Positions 3,311-43,291 of a stretch of DNA of 53,092 nt are shown here, in pieces. The notes beneath the pieces are model-generated. The model was not told where the DNA came from, made no database searches, and worked only from the letters and a program-made list of their open reading frames with translations. Location of the stretch: sequence record NC_047830.1. One strand, written 5' to 3'. The translations under genes and the position numbers were made by a program. Position 1 is the first letter of the stretch, and every line of letters starts with the position of its first letter. Source of the stretch: Escherichia phage ST32.

Positions 3311-3750
3311 GCAGTATGGCATGTAAATATTGCTACAAATTGGCATGTTGGAATGTGGCAGAATTGTTAGAGGACTAATCACCTCGAAGATACAATCGTC
3401 TACCAATCTGGCATGTTAATTTTGTAACAGTATTTGTGCCAATTTCGCATGTAATAGCTGTATCAGTATTAACCCAATATTCTTGCAACCCGCATGAATA
3501 CTGGCTTCCAGCCAAGCGAAGGCTTTATCATCGCATGTAAATATTGTGACAATATTGGGATAAAACCCTTTATTTAATTAGTTTTATTATGCTGTACATG
3601 GTCGGTTTTCCGTACCTATTGCGCCACTTCTTGATGTGCCAAATACATTCCAAGATAGGAGCAAACCTGTAATTAATGATGCATGTTTAATTGTGACAAA
3701 ATTCGTCTATTTGGCAGATGAGTTAGTTGCAATTAAGCATGTCCATTTAT

Positions 3751-3767
3751 CATTAGTTGCATGTGAA
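3751..3767 (+). promoter_or_regulatory. conserved phage promoter-like motif CATTAGTTGCATGTGAA
   Basis: motif family member; about 190 bp upstream of first early gene. Confidence 0.5.
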
Positions 3768-3873
3768 TAAGACCAAATCTCTGTAAATTTTGCTGAAATT
3801 GTGTGACAGATTTTAGAGAGATTATGTCTCCAAGCTAATCATTGTAGTTTTTCGGCACTTGCTGTGTCACATA

Positions 3874-3935
3874 CTCCCTACAGCTTTAAGGTGGATTGAG
3901 GTAAGACAAGACCTCCACAATCGTTATGTAGGGAG
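3874..3935 (+). promoter_or_regulatory. 5' leader hairpin (9-bp outer stem CTCCCTACA/TGTAGGGAG enclosing an inner stem); candidate RNase III-type processing or translational control element
   Basis: perfect inverted repeat 3874-3882 / 3927-3935, 24 nt upstream of the 3959 start. Confidence 0.4.
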
Positions 3936-3958
3936 TTCTTTTAACTTAGGAGAATAAA

Positions 3959-4177
3959 ATGACTCGTTTTAAAGATTTGGAAGATGGTGCAATCTTCTTT
4001 ACGCGTGGTGGAGAACACCTGCAAAAAGTTTTGGAAGATGATATTAATGTAAATGCAGTATTCGTTGGTGATTCTAACATTGGTGTTTTATTAAATGACA
4101 ATGAGAGAACTTTTACCGAGGAGGAGTTTAAAGAAATCTCAGCCTCTGATTTAGTTCAAGAGCCAATTGAAGTTTAA
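3959..4177 (+). CDS. hypothetical early protein
   Basis: ORF with AGGAGA RBS. Confidence 0.55.
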   Translation: MTRFKDLEDGAIFFTRGGEHLQKVLEDDINVNAVFVGDSNIGVLLNDNERTFTEEEFKEISASDLVQEPIEV

Positions 4178-4216
4178 TGCAGGGGGGAGTAAACCCTCCA
4201 AATTCGGAGAGCAGAA

Positions 4217-4453
4217 ATGAATTACGCGCTGTATCAATACATCAATCGTGACGGTGTTGTTTCTCATGCTTTGGTTAATACTGTAACTAAGGCAGTAATG
4301 TTGGCCGACACGGTGATTTATGGAGAAAGAGGGCGTCTGGTTTGGAAACCTGCTGCACACCCTGAATATGTTTGGCTTGCAATTCAAAATGACAAGCACA
4401 ACAAAATTGTGGCAATGGCTGTTCACCCTCAATTCATTAAAGCACGAGGTTAA
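4217..4453 (+). CDS. hypothetical early protein
   Basis: ORF with GGAGAG RBS. Confidence 0.55.
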   Translation: MNYALYQYINRDGVVSHALVNTVTKAVMLADTVIYGERGRLVWKPAAHPEYVWLAIQNDKHNKIVAMAVHPQFIKARG

Positions 4454-4455
4454 TC

Positions 4456-4644
4456 ATGGACTTCATCGTCTACTTTAAGTTAAATGGTGTGGAGCAAAGA
4501 TTGTACTTCAATTCTTTACTTCGTTTGCAACAGTGGGCGGAGAAGTTTGTTGGGTATGACTTTGAATACATCAACGCATGTACACCTGACGAACATGAGG
4601 AAATCGTGTTCAGTTCTTTAAATCAAATTCTGGAGGCCAAATGA
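4456..4644 (+). CDS. hypothetical early protein
   Basis: ORF with GAGG RBS, tightly packed after the previous gene. Confidence 0.5.
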   Translation: MDFIVYFKLNGVEQRLYFNSLLRLQQWAEKFVGYDFEYINACTPDEHEEIVFSSLNQILEAK

Positions 4645-35329: not shown

Positions 35330-35838
35330 TTTACGATGAAGATATTCAGGCGATGAAGGATATTGTGGACGTCTGTGTTGGCGTCCCACGCTTCTCTTAT
35401 GAGATGCAGATAAACGCACCTCGACCAGCTGATAACTACGCCGCAATAAAGTGTGTGTCGTCAGTTAATCCAGGCTTTGATGAAACTCGAATCGAAGTCC
35501 GTAATGGTGAGGAAGTCTTTGTTACGAGAGGGATTCGAATTCTAACTTTCTACATTCTCTTCTCACGTCGTGGGAGTGAATATGTTAAGTTCGACAATTC
35601 CTTCTTCCGTCCAGATGTTCAGGCCATGCTTAAGAGCAAAGGCTTTGCAACACTCGACAAAAATCCACTGAATCTTGCCTCGTTAACTCTTGAGACGAAT
35701 TGGGAATTCCGAGAAGGAATCCAAATCAAATTCAATGTTCTGCGTGAAGACGTAATGAATATTGGAACAATGTCTGACGCCAGTGTTGGCGGCAAATTCT
35801 ATGATGGTGGTGAACCCATCCTAATTAAGGGAATCTAA
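35326..35838 (+). CDS. structural protein (hypothetical)
   Basis: ORF with GGAG RBS, ATGA overlap. Confidence 0.55.
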   Translation: MIYDEDIQAMKDIVDVCVGVPRFSYEMQINAPRPADNYAAIKCVSSVNPGFDETRIEVRNGEEVFVTRGIRILTFYILFSRRGSEYVKFDNSFFRPDVQAMLKSKGFATLDKNPLNLASLTLETNWEFREGIQIKFNVLREDVMNIGTMSDASVGGKFYDGGEPILIKGI

Positions 35839-37287
35839 ATGGCAATTCCAATTTCCGATATCATCCAGGTCAACATCGCGGTATCTCCGAATGCTGTTGC
35901 CGTGGAGGGTTTTGGTCCGCTCCTGTTCTTGAGCAAGCAGTTTGTTCCAGCGCCGGGCGAACGTGTTCCTGTGCGCCAGTATACCAGCATGGCTGCTGTA
36001 TCTGCTGATTTCCCATCCGGTGAAATTTACAATGCAGCTTTAGCGTGGTTTTCTCAGAAACCGACTCCGAAGTATTTCCTTGTGGGTGCTATCACTCATG
36101 AAGATGTTACTCCGGCAACTTCTGGGTCTGTCACGGCATCTGCTGCTGCAACTCTGGAAACTATCACTGCGTTAACCAATGGCGTGCTGTCCATTAACGT
36201 TGATGGCGTAGACCGTTCTACCGCTCCAATCAACTTCTCTTCTGCTCACGACTTTGATGCTGCTACCTCCATGGCAAACGCGGCACTGGTTGCTGCTGGT
36301 ATTCCAGTAACCATGTCTAACAGCGAAGGTACTTTCAAAATTGTTACCAAGTCTGTAGGTGCTAAATCCATTATTGGTGACGTATACGGCTCTGCTGCTC
36401 CAGCATTCAAACTGGATGCGGAATCAAGTCCGGTGTATGTGCATGGTACTGATGAAGTATCTGCAGGTTCCGACCTGAACGCAATCCTAAACTCAACGTT
36501 CGACTTCTTCTTCGTTGCAATCGACCGCAAATATCGTGGCAGTTCTTCTGGCAATGTTCAGATGACTGTTGCTAAGTGGGCAGAAGCAAACGAGAAAGTG
36601 TTTGGCTGGGCCGATAACGACCCACAGATTCTGGTTGTTGGTGCAGAATCTAGCTTCAAACGAGCTAAAGAACAGAACCTCCAGCGTACCCTGCTGGTAT
36701 ATGACGCCTCTGACAATGGTGACGAATATCCAGAGATTTCTATCCTGGGCCGTGCATCTACTGTCAACTTCAACGTTGCAAACTCTGCACTCGTTCTGGC
36801 ATTTAAACAAGGTCCGGCTATCAAGACTGCTGACCTGTCCCCGAACCAGCTCGCTGCACTTGAGCGTGTAAATGGTAACGCATTCATCAACGTTGGTGGG
36901 AACACTATGTTCTACAACGGCAAGATGGCTGACGGCACTTGGTTCGATACCGTTCAGGGTGTATCTTGGCTGACCTCTAAAGTTCGTGCCAACGTGTTCA
37001 ACCTGTTCTATACCTCTACGACCAAGATTCCTTGGACCGATACTGGTGTGGCTCTGGTGAACCAACAGGTTACTCTGGCTCTGGAACTGGCTGTGACTAA
37101 TGGTCTGATTGCTCCAGGTTACGACAACGAAGGCAACTTCTACCCAGATGGTTACAAAGTCTTGTCTACCGACTTGGCTCTGATGCAATCTCAGAAAGGT
37201 GCTCGTATCTGGGAAGGTACTTCCTTCATTGCGATTGGTTCTGGTGCACTGCAAGGTGCAGTTATCTCCGGCAACTTCGTTCAGTAA
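35839..37287 (+). CDS. tail sheath protein (putative)
   Basis: 482 aa, host-like codon usage, immediately upstream of tube-sized gene, chaperone pair and tape measure. Confidence 0.65.
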   Translation: MAIPISDIIQVNIAVSPNAVAVEGFGPLLFLSKQFVPAPGERVPVRQYTSMAAVSADFPSGEIYNAALAWFSQKPTPKYFLVGAITHEDVTPATSGSVTASAAATLETITALTNGVLSINVDGVDRSTAPINFSSAHDFDAATSMANAALVAAGIPVTMSNSEGTFKIVTKSVGAKSIIGDVYGSAAPAFKLDAESSPVYVHGTDEVSAGSDLNAILNSTFDFFFVAIDRKYRGSSSGNVQMTVAKWAEANEKVFGWADNDPQILVVGAESSFKRAKEQNLQRTLLVYDASDNGDEYPEISILGRASTVNFNVANSALVLAFKQGPAIKTADLSPNQLAALERVNGNAFINVGGNTMFYNGKMADGTWFDTVQGVSWLTSKVRANVFNLFYTSTTKIPWTDTGVALVNQQVTLALELAVTNGLIAPGYDNEGNFYPDGYKVLSTDLALMQSQKGARIWEGTSFIAIGSGALQGAVISGNFVQ

Positions 37288-37297
37288 GGTGCGATAA

Positions 37298-37753
37298 GTG
37301 AAACAATATTCTTTCTATAATACCGACCTCATTATCGACGGTGCTCGTGTAGATGGTTTTACTTCTGGTAACTCCATTATCACTGCTCGTCGTAACGCAC
37401 CTCAACACCTGCCTGTTATTGACGCGTATGGTAAGTTGGCTGTAGCTACTACGGCTGACTTATCCGGCACTATTACTTTCCCGCTTCTGCAAACCGCAGA
37501 CTGGAACGAAATCCTGTACAGCCGTGCTCAGTTAACTCAGGCAACTGGCCTGTCTGGTAACAAATCTCTGTGGCAACCGCTCCAGATTCAGATTGTTGAC
37601 AAGATGGGTGATGTGCTGGTCAATGGTGTAAACGGCGCTATCTTGCAGCAACCTGCAATTCAGCGTGGTGTGTCCTTCACGTCTAACGTGTGGTCTATCT
37701 TTGTAGAGCGCCTCCAGATTAAGACTGGCTCTTATCCGGAAATTGGCGTTTAA
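37298..37753 (+). CDS. tail tube protein (putative)
   Basis: 151 aa ORF after sheath gene; AAGGTG RBS before GTG start. Confidence 0.6.
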   Translation: MKQYSFYNTDLIIDGARVDGFTSGNSIITARRNAPQHLPVIDAYGKLAVATTADLSGTITFPLLQTADWNEILYSRAQLTQATGLSGNKSLWQPLQIQIVDKMGDVLVNGVNGAILQQPAIQRGVSFTSNVWSIFVERLQIKTGSYPEIGV

Positions 37754-37764
37754 TTGGAGTAAGT

Positions 37765-38223
37765 ATGGCTTGTGAATTGCTTCAACGTGAATTCACAAAC
37801 TCCAAAGGCGAAACAGTGTTAGTCGTTGTTCGACAATTGTCGGCTTCGGCTGCACTGTCTCTTCACGCGGAGTTGGTAAGCAAGTTAGGCTCACGAGTAT
37901 TTCCATTCATCGAAGGTAAATATAACTTCGCTGATATTATATACTTGATGCAGCAAGTAGAGCATACCGTATTCACAGAATTGTTTAAGCGTGTTATCAG
38001 CATGCACTCGTCCATAGACGGACAAGAAATCAAACCTGCATTATATGATATGCAGTTCAATGGCGAATTGATGTTGTCTTGCCATGTCTTTGCTTTCGTG
38101 CTCGAAGCAAACTTCCTTGATTTTTTCAAGCAAGGGCTCGAAATCAACGAACAGAGACGATTGGAGGCGGAGGAAGCATCCAAGCTGGCAGAGCAGAAGA
38201 ATTCGAGTCCGGAGACAGTTTAG
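37765..38223 (+). CDS. tail assembly chaperone
   Basis: position between tube and tape measure; overlapping ORF in another frame; T6 slippery run. Confidence 0.6.
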   Translation: MACELLQREFTNSKGETVLVVVRQLSASAALSLHAELVSKLGSRVFPFIEGKYNFADIIYLMQQVEHTVFTELFKRVISMHSSIDGQEIKPALYDMQFNGELMLSCHVFAFVLEANFLDFFKQGLEINEQRRLEAEEASKLAEQKNSSPETV

Positions 38224-38299
38224 TATCCCTGTTCCCCGACATAAAATATTTTCTGCATCGTCCTATAATCGAAGACAGTTCTCTCTGCAAGTTACGTGA
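38084..38299 (+). CDS. tail assembly chaperone frameshift extension (expressed as fusion via +1/-2 shift at 38121-38126)
   Basis: ORF in +1 frame relative to 37765-38223, no RBS at its ATG, extends 76 nt beyond the chaperone stop. Confidence 0.4.
   Translation: MSLLSCSKQTSLIFSSKGSKSTNRDDWRRRKHPSWQSRRIRVRRQFSIPVPRHKIFSASSYNRRQFSLQVT
38121..38126 (+). other. candidate programmed frameshift site (TTTTTT followed by C) in tail chaperone gene
   Basis: homopolymeric T6 run inside the 140-nt two-frame overlap. Confidence 0.45.
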
Positions 38300-38382
38300 A
38301 TTGCAAGATGGAACCTATTCGATTATGGACTTATTGCTATTCCACGACATTCTCGATTTGCGTAAGAAACTCGAACCAGTAG

Positions 38383-41300
38383 ATGAAGACAATGGCTAAT
38401 CAAAAAGATTTAATGAAGTTGAGCGTTAATGAGTTAATTGCATTAGGCTCTCAAAGCGGTCTGACTTTCCATGCTGGTATGAAGAAGTCGCACATGGTTC
38501 AACAACTTAGTGCGAGCGCTGCTTCGGGATGGCTGGATACAAATGCAGAATTAATGGGTGGGTCGTTTGAAGATGACAGTTTAATTACTGAATCTTTGGG
38601 CGACTCTTCCATGATTTCAGACGCTGCCCACATTGCACAAGTGCTTTCAAGTGCTGGCTACACAGAAGCATTTCATGCAGCAATGAATGGCCCAACACAC
38701 CATGTAGAAGCTGTTCACGCATACATGGAAAGGCTTGGCGTCAACACAGATGATGTGTGGATGCACATGCCAAAGCCAAATCCGAACTTACCGCAAGGTA
38801 GCTTCAACATGCTTAATGCCTATATGCGAGATACTTTGCAAGGGCATCAAGATATTATGCCAGAAATCCCAGGCCACTATGCTGGGGATATTATGGCTGA
38901 ATACTCCACCAACCGTGGAAACATTGCCGACTCATACAACTACATGGCTCACATGTATGTTGACCGTGAGCAGTACAGCAATCATGAACAATACGCAAGA
39001 GACATTAGTCGAGTTGCCAAACGTCTGGAACAAGAGTTACCCGCAGCCTTTAAGGAAGTTGGGTATACCTCGGCCTCTAATGTAGGAAATAAATCGGCCC
39101 CACATATTTCTTACATGGATGCACTTCCTCAGATTGGCTCTCATTCAATTGTTTCTGGCATTGCACATCCTCGTGCGCCTCTTAACGCATCTGGACTTCC
39201 TCTTGGTTCATATGGTTCTGGCATAAATCCAGAATACTCCCTCACTGCATCATTAACTGGTGGCACAGGTTGGAGCGAACCAAGCAAGGCTTTATATTCC
39301 TCTATTAGTGAAGCTGTTAAATCTGCTGCCAAAGTTTATTCTGGCTCCAAAGGGATGATGAATACTCGTCACGAAGTATCTGACCGTGACATGATTATGG
39401 ACAGCGCAACTCGCTATACAGATTTGGAAGAAGCCAGAAGCGGGTATGAAAACCTTCGTTCTGAACTTGCAGATGAACCAGCTTATTCTGCATCGAGTGT
39501 TCGAGCTATTCTCGAAAACACTTACGACAAAATGGATGCCGAACCTGTTCGCATTCCAAAGATGAAGGGAGCTTCACAGCGAATCGAAAAAGATTCGCAA
39601 CCAACATCTACAGAATTTACAGCACAACTTGGAGAGGCCACCAATTGGAACTCTGCAAGAATGCGTCGTGAGGAAATTGCGATTGCAAATATGGATAGTG
39701 CTGGATTCCGTGATGTATCAGACTATGGCACAGGACGTTCCGAGTCTCCCGTCAGATTCCACGACTTAGAACAGGGTAGCCAAGAGTGGTTAGACTTCCG
39801 TAAAAATTATGACATAACTGGCTCAACTGTTGGAACTTTCTTAGGAAACAACCCGTACACCCGACCTTGGGCGGGAATGATTGACAAGATTGGTCTATCT
39901 CGTAGTAAAGAGCACAGCGATTTCACCAAGAAGATGTTCGCTGATGGTCACAGGACGGAAGAAGAAGCACGCGCTCGTGTTGGTAAGGAATTTGGATTCG
40001 ATATCAAACAAACTGGCGCTATAACAAATGACAACTATCCCGCCTTCATGTATTCTCCTGATGGTCTTATTGGCGATGATGCCATTTGGGAGCATAAGAA
40101 TCCGCAAAGGGCTGGTAAGTTTGCTGACCTTCTTAAAGGCGACCATCCAGATTACATGGACCAAATTCAATTTGGTATGCACGTTTCTGGCCGTTCTCGT
40201 GCTTTGTTCTCACAAACCATCAACGACGAAACACGTTCGCAATGGATTGAGAAGGACGAAGGATGGTACGAGAGAAACCGAAATCGCCTTGATTCTGTGC
40301 TTGGCCGCCTTGATGCTGGGCGAGAGTTTGTTAGAAACAATGCTGGACTAGACCGAGAAGAACTGATTGCTGGTGCAAGAAGTGCAATGACTGGTGACGG
40401 AATCTGGAAGGATATTCGTCAAAGGTCAACTCGTGGCTATTCTGCCGTTGCTGGAACTCCAGAAGACCCATTCATTGGTTCACGTTCTTCATACAATCCA
40501 ACGGCATCTTACTCAGACTACCAGCCAAACTTTGTAATGCACGAGCAAAACTTTCCAGCAACCACAGGAAATGGGGATACTGGAAACGACTCGATGGCAT
40601 TGTCTGTTAAGAAAGGTATCCTTGCTGCTCAGGAAGAAAACAGGCAGAAGGGTATCGGTGCAGATGCAGACTTTAACGGCAAAGCCGATTCAATGGGTTG
40701 GGACCGCGAAAGATTTGATGCTGCCAATGGCGGTGGATATTCTGGCGGTGGCGGTGGTCGTGGCGGTAACTTCACAAGTGGTGGCAACTACTATGATGAC
40801 TACGGTCGCATGGGTGGTTCACTAGCTGCTGGTATTGCTGGTGGCAGTATTGGTTCAGCAACCAACGGAGTTATGCAAGCATTGATGGCAACTCCTGCCG
40901 GACGTATGGCTGCTGTGGGCATTGGTGCTATTCAGATTGGCAATGAAGCTGCTGAATACATGAATGACTTTATCGGCAATTCGCTTGATGCTGGTGTGAT
41001 AAATCCTAATGAATACTCTTCTATGTCGCAAGGCTTGGAGATGTTAGGACTAAACTCCCAACAAGCGGCACGTCTGAATCAAACCGCACATAGTGCCTAC
41101 AACACCATGCTTAACGGCGACCCCAGCGCCGCTGTGAACATCGTTCGCGGCAGTAGGGGATTGCTCACCATAGGTGATATTCGTGCGACAGGCGGCGACC
41201 CTGTGGCCCTGGCTCGCATCATGCAGGAAAGGGGCAAGGAGCGTGGCTGGAGTCAGGCCCGTATCGCAGGTGCTGCCGAAATGGCTGGCCTGAATGGGAT

Positions 41301-42108
41301 GGCGCGAGCCTACGACCGCACTGAATACAGTCATGAGCAAGCTGGTTCGGTGGTAGAAGCGGGTAGAAACTCTGACTTTGCCGAAGGTATGGCCCAATCG
41401 GAAATGTTGCAGGGAAGCCGCGCACGGATGCTGCCGAGCTATAACGTGCCACAAAGTGTCTTATCTAACGGTGCTTCCGTATTTGAGGCTGGCAGTGATG
41501 CACTTGATAGTGTACGCACTGGATTCAACAATACGCGAGAATTTGCTGGAAGTGTTTACGACTTTATCGCCCAAGAAGAATCTGGCGGTCGTGAATATAA
41601 CAAGGATGGTTCCCGTGTAACAAGTCGTACTGGTGCTCGTGGGATAATGCAGATTCTTCCTTCAACAGCCCGTGACCCAGGATTTGGAATCAGGCCATCT
41701 GATGGAACTCCGGAAGATGATGCGCGAGTTGGTCGTGAATACTATGACGCAATGTACAAGCGTTATGGCGACCACGAAAAGGCAATGGCTGCTTACACCG
41801 ATGGTCCTGGCACTGTTGACAAAGCTGTTGATAAGAATGGGTTGGATTGGCTAACTGCTGTTCCTGTACAAGCACAGAATCGCGTCAAAGCATTCCGTGA
41901 ATGGTCCAAGTCTTCTCAGTCTTTGGAAGAAGGTGCTACAGGGTTTACTCGTAATGGAATGTCATACGGTCAAACCCAAACTGTTGTTAATGTTAAGATT
42001 GATGCTAAGGTCAACAACCAGACTGCCTCTGCTACAGTGGCAATTCCTGGTGGCCAGACTGTAACTCAACAGATGAACATGAACAACGGTGCGCAACAAA
42101 GAAGATAA
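38383..42108 (+). CDS. tape measure protein with embedded YqaJ-like nuclease domain and C-terminal lytic transglycosylase domain
   Basis: 1241 aa after tail chaperones; N-terminal Rho-N/SAP-like segment; QGSQEWLDFR...ITGSTVG...SPDGLIGDD..WEHKNP (YqaJ-like); GARGIMQILPSTARDPGFG (SLT-like); Gly-rich tract. Confidence 0.75.
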   Translation: MKTMANQKDLMKLSVNELIALGSQSGLTFHAGMKKSHMVQQLSASAASGWLDTNAELMGGSFEDDSLITESLGDSSMISDAAHIAQVLSSAGYTEAFHAAMNGPTHHVEAVHAYMERLGVNTDDVWMHMPKPNPNLPQGSFNMLNAYMRDTLQGHQDIMPEIPGHYAGDIMAEYSTNRGNIADSYNYMAHMYVDREQYSNHEQYARDISRVAKRLEQELPAAFKEVGYTSASNVGNKSAPHISYMDALPQIGSHSIVSGIAHPRAPLNASGLPLGSYGSGINPEYSLTASLTGGTGWSEPSKALYSSISEAVKSAAKVYSGSKGMMNTRHEVSDRDMIMDSATRYTDLEEARSGYENLRSELADEPAYSASSVRAILENTYDKMDAEPVRIPKMKGASQRIEKDSQPTSTEFTAQLGEATNWNSARMRREEIAIANMDSAGFRDVSDYGTGRSESPVRFHDLEQGSQEWLDFRKNYDITGSTVGTFLGNNPYTRPWAGMIDKIGLSRSKEHSDFTKKMFADGHRTEEEARARVGKEFGFDIKQTGAITNDNYPAFMYSPDGLIGDDAIWEHKNPQRAGKFADLLKGDHPDYMDQIQFGMHVSGRSRALFSQTINDETRSQWIEKDEGWYERNRNRLDSVLGRLDAGREFVRNNAGLDREELIAGARSAMTGDGIWKDIRQRSTRGYSAVAGTPEDPFIGSRSSYNPTASYSDYQPNFVMHEQNFPATTGNGDTGNDSMALSVKKGILAAQEENRQKGIGADADFNGKADSMGWDRERFDAANGGGYSGGGGGRGGNFTSGGNYYDDYGRMGGSLAAGIAGGSIGSATNGVMQALMATPAGRMAAVGIGAIQIGNEAAEYMNDFIGNSLDAGVINPNEYSSMSQGLEMLGLNSQQAARLNQTAHSAYNTMLNGDPSAAVNIVRGSRGLLTIGDIRATGGDPVALARIMQERGKERGWSQARIAGAAEMAGLNGMARAYDRTEYSHEQAGSVVEAGRNSDFAEGMAQSEMLQGSRARMLPSYNVPQSVLSNGASVFEAGSDALDSVRTGFNNTREFAGSVYDFIAQEESGGREYNKDGSRVTSRTGARGIMQILPSTARDPGFGIRPSDGTPEDDARVGREYYDAMYKRYGDHEKAMAAYTDGPGTVDKAVDKNGLDWLTAVPVQAQNRVKAFREWSKSSQSLEEGATGFTRNGMSYGQTQTVVNVKIDAKVNNQTASATVAIPGGQTVTQQMNMNNGAQQRR

Positions 42109-42141
42109 GGAGTTGGGGAGAAATCCCCAGCTTTCCTTTTA

Positions 42142-42158
42142 CATTAGTTGAATATGTA
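42142..42158 (+). promoter_or_regulatory. promoter-like motif CATTAGTTGAATATGTA
   Basis: family member, 24 bp upstream of gene 42182. Confidence 0.4.
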
Positions 42159-42181
42159 TTAATTTCAATAGGTATATCGCA

Positions 42182-43291
42182 ATGCCGTGGCTACGCAGAG
42201 TTGAAGTAATAGTTTCACGTAAAGAAGACCCAAGCATTCGGACGGTATTTAAATCACATCGTATTGATTTTGAAGTCCGTTCCACTGTTGGGTGGCCCGC
42301 CGATACAGCAAACATAACTCTGTTTAACTTGTCGTTAGAAGAAGTTAAGTTCCTCCAAGACAAGTCCTACGGAGATATGTATATTGAAATTCGTGCAGGG
42401 TATGCAGAAGATGAACGCTCCGATTCTGGTGGCGGGGCTTCTAGCGGTGGTGTTAAGAAGTTTGGTCAAAAGGCTGAACAGAGTGACCGCGTAACAGTGT
42501 CCACCTCACTGCCAACCATCTTCTCTGGCATTATCACAAACGCAGTTGGCTACAGAAAGCCTCCTGAACATGTAACACAACTGTTCTGTATTTCTAAGGC
42601 ATATGGTGCATCAACTGATTTCAAACAGCTGACTGCAATCAAACCTGGAACCAAGCTCATTGATGCAATGCGCTCAATGTGTTCTGACTATGGATTCAAT
42701 ACCATCTCCACATTTGGTGTTGAAGATTCAGTCCTTGAAACAGTAATGCCTCGTGGGCGTGTGTTTCATGACACATTCTTGAATGAATTTCGTAACATGC
42801 TTGGCGAATACAATTTGCTATACACTGTTACAACTGGTGAAGTTCAAATCTTCCCAGACACCTTTGGTGATAAAGATGCAGTAAACAGAATGTCCAAAGA
42901 CAGAGAGCCAGTTAAGCTGGATGCCAACTCAGTCATTGGAAATCCTGTTGCTGGAATCTGCACCTATACTTTAAACACATTCCTAAACCCATCTTTCCAA
43001 CCAGGGATGATTCTTGATGTATCTCCTTTGCTGGGAGACGAACTACTTGCCAATGGTGTAACCTCTGTTTCAGGGGAAGGTATTGTTCTTAACACAGACC
43101 AGTCCGTATTCCGGTGGGCTGTTGAAGACAAATACTTCATCATGGAAGTTGTGCATAAAGGCTCGACTCACTCAACCATTTATCAAACATCAATCACTGC
43201 AATATTGGGTGGCAATACAATGATGGGTGGTAAGGAAGCTGCGTGGCAGGAAATGTATGCTAACAGTGGAATGGCAATGGAGTCATTTTAA
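42182..43291 (+). CDS. tail/baseplate structural protein (hypothetical)
   Basis: ORF after tape measure. Confidence 0.55.
   Translation: MPWLRRVEVIVSRKEDPSIRTVFKSHRIDFEVRSTVGWPADTANITLFNLSLEEVKFLQDKSYGDMYIEIRAGYAEDERSDSGGGASSGGVKKFGQKAEQSDRVTVSTSLPTIFSGIITNAVGYRKPPEHVTQLFCISKAYGASTDFKQLTAIKPGTKLIDAMRSMCSDYGFNTISTFGVEDSVLETVMPRGRVFHDTFLNEFRNMLGEYNLLYTVTTGEVQIFPDTFGDKDAVNRMSKDREPVKLDANSVIGNPVAGICTYTLNTFLNPSFQPGMILDVSPLLGDELLANGVTSVSGEGIVLNTDQSVFRWAVEDKYFIMEVVHKGSTHSTIYQTSITAILGGNTMMGGKEAAWQEMYANSGMAMESF

Follow-up and report, generated by a model that had tools for sequence, protein, structure and literature searches.

A conserved -1 frameshift signal in the tail assembly chaperone gene of Escherichia phage ST32 and its relatives

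Escherichia phage ST32 very probably makes two tail assembly chaperone proteins from one start codon, a G protein of 152 aa and a GT protein of 211 aa, by a -1 ribosomal frameshift of the type known from the G/GT genes of phage lambda or the E/E+E' genes of phage P2. The DNA analysed, referred to below as the window, is the complete 53,092-nucleotide stretch of record NC_047830.1, which belongs to a phiEcoM-GJ1-like myophage of the family Chaseviridae, genus Carltongylesvirus. Both the slip site and the layout of the reading frames are kept among divergent relatives, and the extension encoded in the -1 frame is under purifying selection. The ST32 case is a standard and strongly conserved -1 tail-chaperone frameshift signal, of a known kind and unannotated in the records inspected. 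The features concerned, with positions counted from the first letter of the window, are as follows.

35839-37287, plus strand: tail sheath gene (DUF3383).
37298-37753, plus strand: tail tube gene; its homologue is annotated as a tail tube protein (PP101-based notes), and there is a weak PF11681 match.
37765-38223, plus strand: gene G, tail assembly chaperone; its product in the zero frame has 152 aa and 17.3 kDa.
38084-38299, plus strand: ORF in the +1 frame, judged to be neither a gene nor a frameshift target.
38118-38120, plus strand: TGA of the -1 frame, which precedes the slip site and sets the 5' limit of the -1 open frame.
38121-38127, plus strand: slippery heptamer T_TTT_TTC, in X_XXY_YYZ register with gene G; proposed -1 slip site.
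38127-38399, plus strand: extension in the -1 frame (T part), 90 codons with TAA at 38397-38399; matches phrog_4364 (E 4.5e-18).
38128-38223, plus strand: dual-coding overlap, shared by the C-terminal tail of G (zero frame) and the predicted GT linker (-1 frame).
38217-38372, plus strand: conserved T-domain block SLVSLFPDIKYFLHRPIIEDSSLCKLRELQDGTYSIMDLLLFHDILDLRKKL, with a DUF6889-like match at about 38286-38360.
38392-42108, plus strand: gene in the tape-measure position, 1238 aa, with a C-terminal SLT domain.

The gene at 37765-38223 is a tail assembly chaperone. Its product matches Pfam family PF21822 (Phage_TAC_15) with an E value of 2.9e-18, above the cutoff, and phrog_11820, 'tail assembly chaperone', with an E value of 2.5e-75, both of which bear out the identity that a sequence-only reading of this DNA had given it. 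We also agree with that reading in placing the gene after the tube gene and before the gene of 1238 aa at the tape-measure position, and the two ORFs that it described, the 152-aa ORF and an overlapping 71-aa ORF with an ATG start in the +1 frame, are both present. An AlphaFold model of G, built with 24 homologues as input, had a mean pLDDT of 84, and a Foldseek search of the PDB with this model gave no significant match. G and the -1 ORF that ends at 38399 overlap, and both lie between the tube and tape-measure genes. A mechanical ORF call would begin the downstream gene at ATG 38383 (MKTMANQ...), and the relatives keep ATGGCTAA at the equivalent of position 38392 (MANQ...); this conserved start overlaps the GT stop codon. 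A promoter and terminator scan from the tube gene to the tape-measure gene found no plus-strand signals. At the nucleotide level, positions 35800-42200 are 97% identical with Escherichia phage EcoM1 and 84-95% identical with flopper, SKA49, Mangalitsa and other relatives, and phiEcoM-GJ1 shows 89% identity over 83% of the same query.

The run of six T residues at 38121-38126, with the zero-frame codons GAT TTT TTC AAG preceded by CTT, had been located correctly, and we concur that this run is the recoding site. The direction of the shift is a different matter. A -1 shift had been excluded on the ground that the -1 frame meets a TGA at once, but that TGA (38118-38120) lies directly 5' of the T-run, and a ribosome slipping -1 on T_TTT_TTC never reads it. 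As the TGA comes before the run and the zero frame reads GAT TTT TTC, the sequence T_TTT_TTC is therefore a textbook X_XXY_YYZ heptamer, and it is the sole in-register heptamer within G. In a systematic study in E. coli, U_UU.U_UU.C falls within the efficient -1 motif class H_HH.U_UU.Y (PMC4066793).

A tblastn search with the hypothetical -1 fusion as the query matched 108 phage records, and in 84 of these at least 80% of the query was covered as two pieces in two frames; the matches reach Aeromonas, Shewanella and Vibrio phages at 30-37% identity. For closer comparison, we used a set of 22 sequences, made up of 21 fetched loci (both subfamilies and one unclassified myovirus) and the window, and we scanned IMG/VR, which gave 27 loci, 19 of them not among the isolates otherwise examined. 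The heptamer TTTTTTC is found in register in 20 of the 22 compared phages, across both Chaseviridae subfamilies and down to approximately 30% protein identity, the exceptions being Faunus (GTTTTTC) and ctfzr933 (TTTTTTT), and in 26 of the 27 IMG/VR loci, where Faunus is again the exception. Of the 96 ungapped codons of G, just five have zero-frame wobble bases that are identical in at least 20 of the 22 sequences. The adjacent codons NNT TTT TTC account for three of them, and CAA and GGG, a short way downstream, for the remaining two. Ahead of the Phe-Phe pair, the Asp codon GAT is replaced by AGT (Ser) in 4HA13 and by GCT (Ala) in Y2 and Fifi44, with the final T kept in each case.

Two side observations concern the site itself. 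In Erwinia phage Faunus (L012 960-966, also L042), the change to GTTTTTC weakens P-site re-pairing and leaves the A-site U_UUC tetramer in place; this could be a true variant of lower efficiency or a homopolymer sequencing error. The tetramer U_UU.C, which is all that Faunus keeps, ranked second among the tetramers in the E. coli study (PMC4066793). The 3' context of the heptamer (38128-38136) reads NNN CAA GGG, with CNAGGG in distant relatives, and is near-invariant including its zero-frame wobble positions, which dual coding may explain, there being a conserved Arg at this place in the -1 frame.

In each of the 22 sequences, 77-97 open codons follow the slip site in the -1 frame, which ends at or over the ATG of the next gene; in all 27 IMG/VR loci, this open stretch has 73-102 codons and ends likewise. 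In the window, the stop-free -1 run comprises 92 codons, counting the two TTT codons after the TGA, and exceeds every one of the 1203 stop-to-stop -1-frame runs that lie inside long ORFs of the window (mean 10.5, maximum 80). When the sequences are compared in pairs over the conserved block of the -1-frame extension, the differences at codon positions 1, 2 and 3 amount to 0.39, 0.24 and 0.63 across all sequences and to 0.25, 0.13 and 0.57 within the Cleopatravirinae. This order of variation, with position 3 above position 1 and position 1 above position 2, indicates a translated frame under purifying selection. In addition, the aa identity of the -1 frame beyond the G stop codon is 0.75-0.96 with respect to four relatives. 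The zero frame carries a complementary signal: in the 60 nucleotides after the heptamer (38128-38187), its differences at codon positions 1, 2 and 3 are 0.14, 0.26 and 0.20, as against 0.36, 0.20 and 0.54 in 30 upstream codons that encode G only, and such suppression of zero-frame wobble (0.20 versus 0.54) fits with dual coding of this segment.

The predicted GT protein consists of G residues 1-121 followed by the -1 extension, giving 211 aa and 23.9 kDa. All of the -1 extensions share a C-terminal block of approximately 55 aa, with the consensus LFPxIxYFLHRPVIEDSSLCxLxELQDGTYSxxDLLxFHxILDLR. Against PF21829 (DUF6889), 15 of the 16 family members gave matches with their T parts at E<0.1, with a best E value of 1.9e-9, and the T part of the window scored 20.5-21.1 bits, which is under the gathering cutoff of 23.9 bits for this family. 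A PDB sequence search with a T-domain profile and a search of NCBIfam each returned no matches. These data suggest that DUF6889, which Pfam lists with unknown function, is the T domain of a frameshifted tail chaperone.

We also compared the 92-aa T-part query from the window with a representative library of 1.84 billion proteins. The matches were mostly fragments of 35-110 aa, i.e. miscalled pieces of the T frame, and the library held one true in-frame fusion, the metagenomic protein P0076 of 194 aa. In a single frame, P0076 combines PF21822 (residues 9-114, E 5e-11) with PF21829 (residues 153-187, E 2.5e-12, 46.8 bits), and it has the motif ENFGVFF at the position of NFLDFF in the window. It is encoded on a GC-rich metagenomic contig of 51.9 kb, L025 (ENA ERZ25070720 ctg115445l), directly after a second chaperone gene with PF21822 alone, the two genes lying at 3451-4585. 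The phage represented by this contig would thus appear to encode G-like and GT-like proteins as two genes, without a frameshift, an arrangement that supports the T domain working as a C-terminal extension of the chaperone domain. The next gene on L025 is Dit-like, and no obvious tape measure was seen there. Three very long proteins in the same search, P0047, P0061 and P0074 (1552-2012 aa), matched the T query in several stretches with E values down to 3e-20, and we took these matches as spurious; they are probably additive weak matches and not homology, P0047, the one inspected, being highly repetitive. From this phage family, no fused GT protein was found in the protein databases, where all 46 matches are G proteins of 135-159 aa that cover 50-67% of the fusion query (58% in nearly all).

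We propose that the majority of ribosomes would stop at TAG 38221-38223 and release G, and that a minority would slip back by one nucleotide on T_TTT_TTC. Two tRNA-Phe molecules, paired with UUU (P site) and UUC (A site), would slip simultaneously and re-pair on UUU UUU, and translation would then resume at CAA (38127-38129) in the -1 frame and continue to the TAA at 38397-38399. The resulting GT protein would join G residues 1-121 to a Gly/Arg-rich linker and a C-terminal domain of the DUF6889 type of about 55 aa. By analogy with lambda (PMC5009743) and P2, G and the G part of GT would coat or bind the tape-measure protein encoded downstream, the tube protein would be brought in by the T domain, and the G:GT ratio would follow from the frequency of slipping. 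The ribosomal nature of the slip, its frequency and the roles of the two proteins are points that we infer; searches of the literature turned up no proteomic data on gene G.

Long-tailed phages in general conserve frameshifting in their tail chaperone genes, with known variants of the -1, -2 and +1 kinds (PMC5009743). Among the closest known systems is P2, in which E/E+E' are made by a -1 frameshift at TTTTTTG with no downstream hairpin (PMC3091744). As in P2, the ST32 phage has a contractile tail and a chaperone gene between the tube and tape-measure genes, with a T6-based heptamer, a predicted -1 shift, an extension that ends at the tape-measure gene and no conserved downstream RNA structure (PMC3091744). 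It differs from P2 in that its heptamer ends in C and not in G, its G protein has 152 aa compared with 91 aa, its T part carries DUF6889, and no match of P2 GpE to ST32 proteins was found in protein family or PDB searches. With lambda G/GT, it shares the position of the gene and a common N-terminus with a longer product by a low-frequency -1 slip, which is predicted here, and neither product would be expected in the virion (PMC5009743). Lambda, unlike ST32, is a siphovirus with the heptamer G_GGA_AAG and a chaperone of a different Pfam family, and its G:GT ratio is approximately 30:1.

As a possible stimulator, we considered a long-range stem of 9 bp, 38134-38142 with 38201-38209 (GGGCUCGAA with UUCGAGUCC), which begins 6 nucleotides past the heptamer in the window and close relatives. 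The stem was not significant when compared with shuffled sequences (z -1.4), and an alignment of 11 sequences downstream of the heptamer had a consensus energy of -0.4 kcal/mol and showed no pairs that covary. It is also broken in phiA050 and in more distant phages, and distant relatives fold differently. For these reasons, i.e. the z value, the lack of covariation and the different folds in distant relatives, we rejected it as a conserved stimulator. The missing conserved RNA structure is weak counter-evidence to frameshifting because lambda and P2 are also without one.

The same GT protein could be produced by transcriptional slippage, in which the host RNA polymerase or a T7-like polymerase of the phage would add one U on the T6 run. 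The U7 mRNA so formed encodes an identical GT sequence, and since both routes yield the same protein, a ribosomal slip and an extra U are not separable from sequence. A T7 run is indeed present in ctfzr933, and phage-specific promoters are annotated in this module in Chaseviridae records, but the run in ST32 has just six bases, and documented programmed transcriptional slippage sites are usually 8-9 bases or longer. Furthermore, the heptamer is kept with its terminal C and in an exact codon register, both of which matter for tRNA re-pairing and not for a polymerase, and Faunus, in which the run is cut to T5, retains the A-site U_UUC. Run length, terminal C and strict codon register together speak for the ribosome over the polymerase, and we regard transcriptional slippage as the source of GT as distinctly improbable. 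It is likewise unlikely, in our estimate, that GT comes wholly or partly from slippage by a single-subunit RNA polymerase of the phage or that the 3' context TTTTTTC NNN CNA GGG stimulates slipping; either one, if true, would be a departure from the textbook G/GT mechanism.

A further reading takes the -1-frame ORF as a separate small gene that is translated from its own internal start or by translational coupling. Gene callers do produce fragments of 35-110 aa from this frame, and pieces of the T frame are annotated as separate 'hypothetical proteins' in phiEcoM-GJ1 (gp61), PM1_050, PYps3T (gp69), Myduc (gp50), BUCT696 (gp53), pAh6-C (gp9) and ZPAH140 (URG13875). However, the annotated starts disagree with one another, and that of phiEcoM-GJ1 gp61 (L001 2882-3103) in GenBank is an ATC. 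In the window, the -1 frame is without ATG, GTG or TTG before codon 61, where TTG 38301 has no obvious Shine-Dalgarno sequence and is placed after half of the conserved domain. Across the relatives, the first ATG, GTG or TTG of this frame falls anywhere from codon 32 to codon 75, with no conservation of position, and the open frame itself always begins at or before the heptamer. No relative has its first start codon upstream of where the conserved block begins, and in most it lies inside or past the block; separate initiation therefore cannot yield the whole conserved domain. We consider a separate gene very unlikely, and its annotations are probably misannotated pieces of the frameshift extension.

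The sequence-only reading had favoured slipping by +1 or -2 at the T6 run to enter the ORF at 38084-38299; such a slip would give a fusion of some 177-178 aa and would be comparable to the -2 shift of phage Mu. There are grounds on which it might be entertained: a -2 slip on the T-run could leave tRNA-Phe able to re-pair, the window has 56 open codons past the site in the +1 frame and its closest relatives have 47-56, and -2 and +1 shifts are documented in the tail chaperones of other phages (PMC5009743). Mu, a myovirus with chaperone recoding at the same genomic position, is a precedent for this direction (PMC5009743). In the ST32 family, unlike Mu, the conserved frame is the -1 frame, and the +1/-2 frame is not conserved. 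It is shut within 1-5 codons of the slip site in 10 of the 22 sequences, with 11-56 codons in the others, and spans 13 codons or fewer in 17 of the 27 IMG/VR loci. Beyond the G stop codon, its aa identity with four relatives is 0.46-0.67, compared with the much higher values given above for the -1 frame, so that it evolves like non-coding sequence. The length of the +1 ORF is unremarkable, as 11 of the 1203 -1-frame runs in the window reach 56 codons and two reach 75, and its peptide had no match in PHROG. It stops 93 nucleotides short of the tape-measure start, on which the -1 frame ends, and the reason given for excluding the -1 frame was a coordinate error. In every relative examined, it is the -1 frame that carries a conserved extension to the tape-measure start; as the conserved extension lies in this frame and not in the +1 frame, the predicted long product is therefore 211 aa and not about 178 aa. 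These comparisons have already largely refuted the +1/-2 model, to which we give scarcely any credence. That the T-run and the open -1 frame coincide by chance, with no recoding at all, is a negligible prospect, which the comparative data have already refuted, since approximately 40 distinct loci keep the site, its register and the open frame, and purifying selection acts on the -1 extension.

A -1 ribosomal frameshift thus being our preferred reading, its value is mainly practical, in that it gives the family as a whole an annotation and a defined slip site. A joined G/GT coding sequence is annotated in none of the 24 related phage records inspected (22 of Chaseviridae type and two without a family assignment, the distant outgroup ctfzr933 being left out). 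Similarly, we found no report of a chaperone frameshift in Chaseviridae or phiEcoM-GJ1 in the literature searched, the coverage of which was incomplete, and it may be noted elsewhere. The comparison also offers a plausible functional label for DUF6889, and it corrects the direction of the shift, as the +1/-2 proposal would point experimenters to the wrong fusion size. Biologically, it is one more conserved example of tail-chaperone frameshifting and raises no new question.

Two minor observations were made on the surrounding module. The protein in the tape-measure position contains, in its middle, a YqaJ-like recombinase/exonuclease domain (PF09588, aa 465-601, E 2e-13, above the cutoff), together with an SLT lytic transglycosylase domain at aa 1058-1149 and a Gly-rich run; a nuclease fold within such a protein is unusual. 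In addition, record PP952070.1, named 'Staphylococcus phage Pel53' with Staphylococcus hyicus as its stated host, has DNA approximately 90% identical with the ST32 module and chaperone proteins 96.7% identical with those of ST32, and its Staphylococcus host label looks doubtful.
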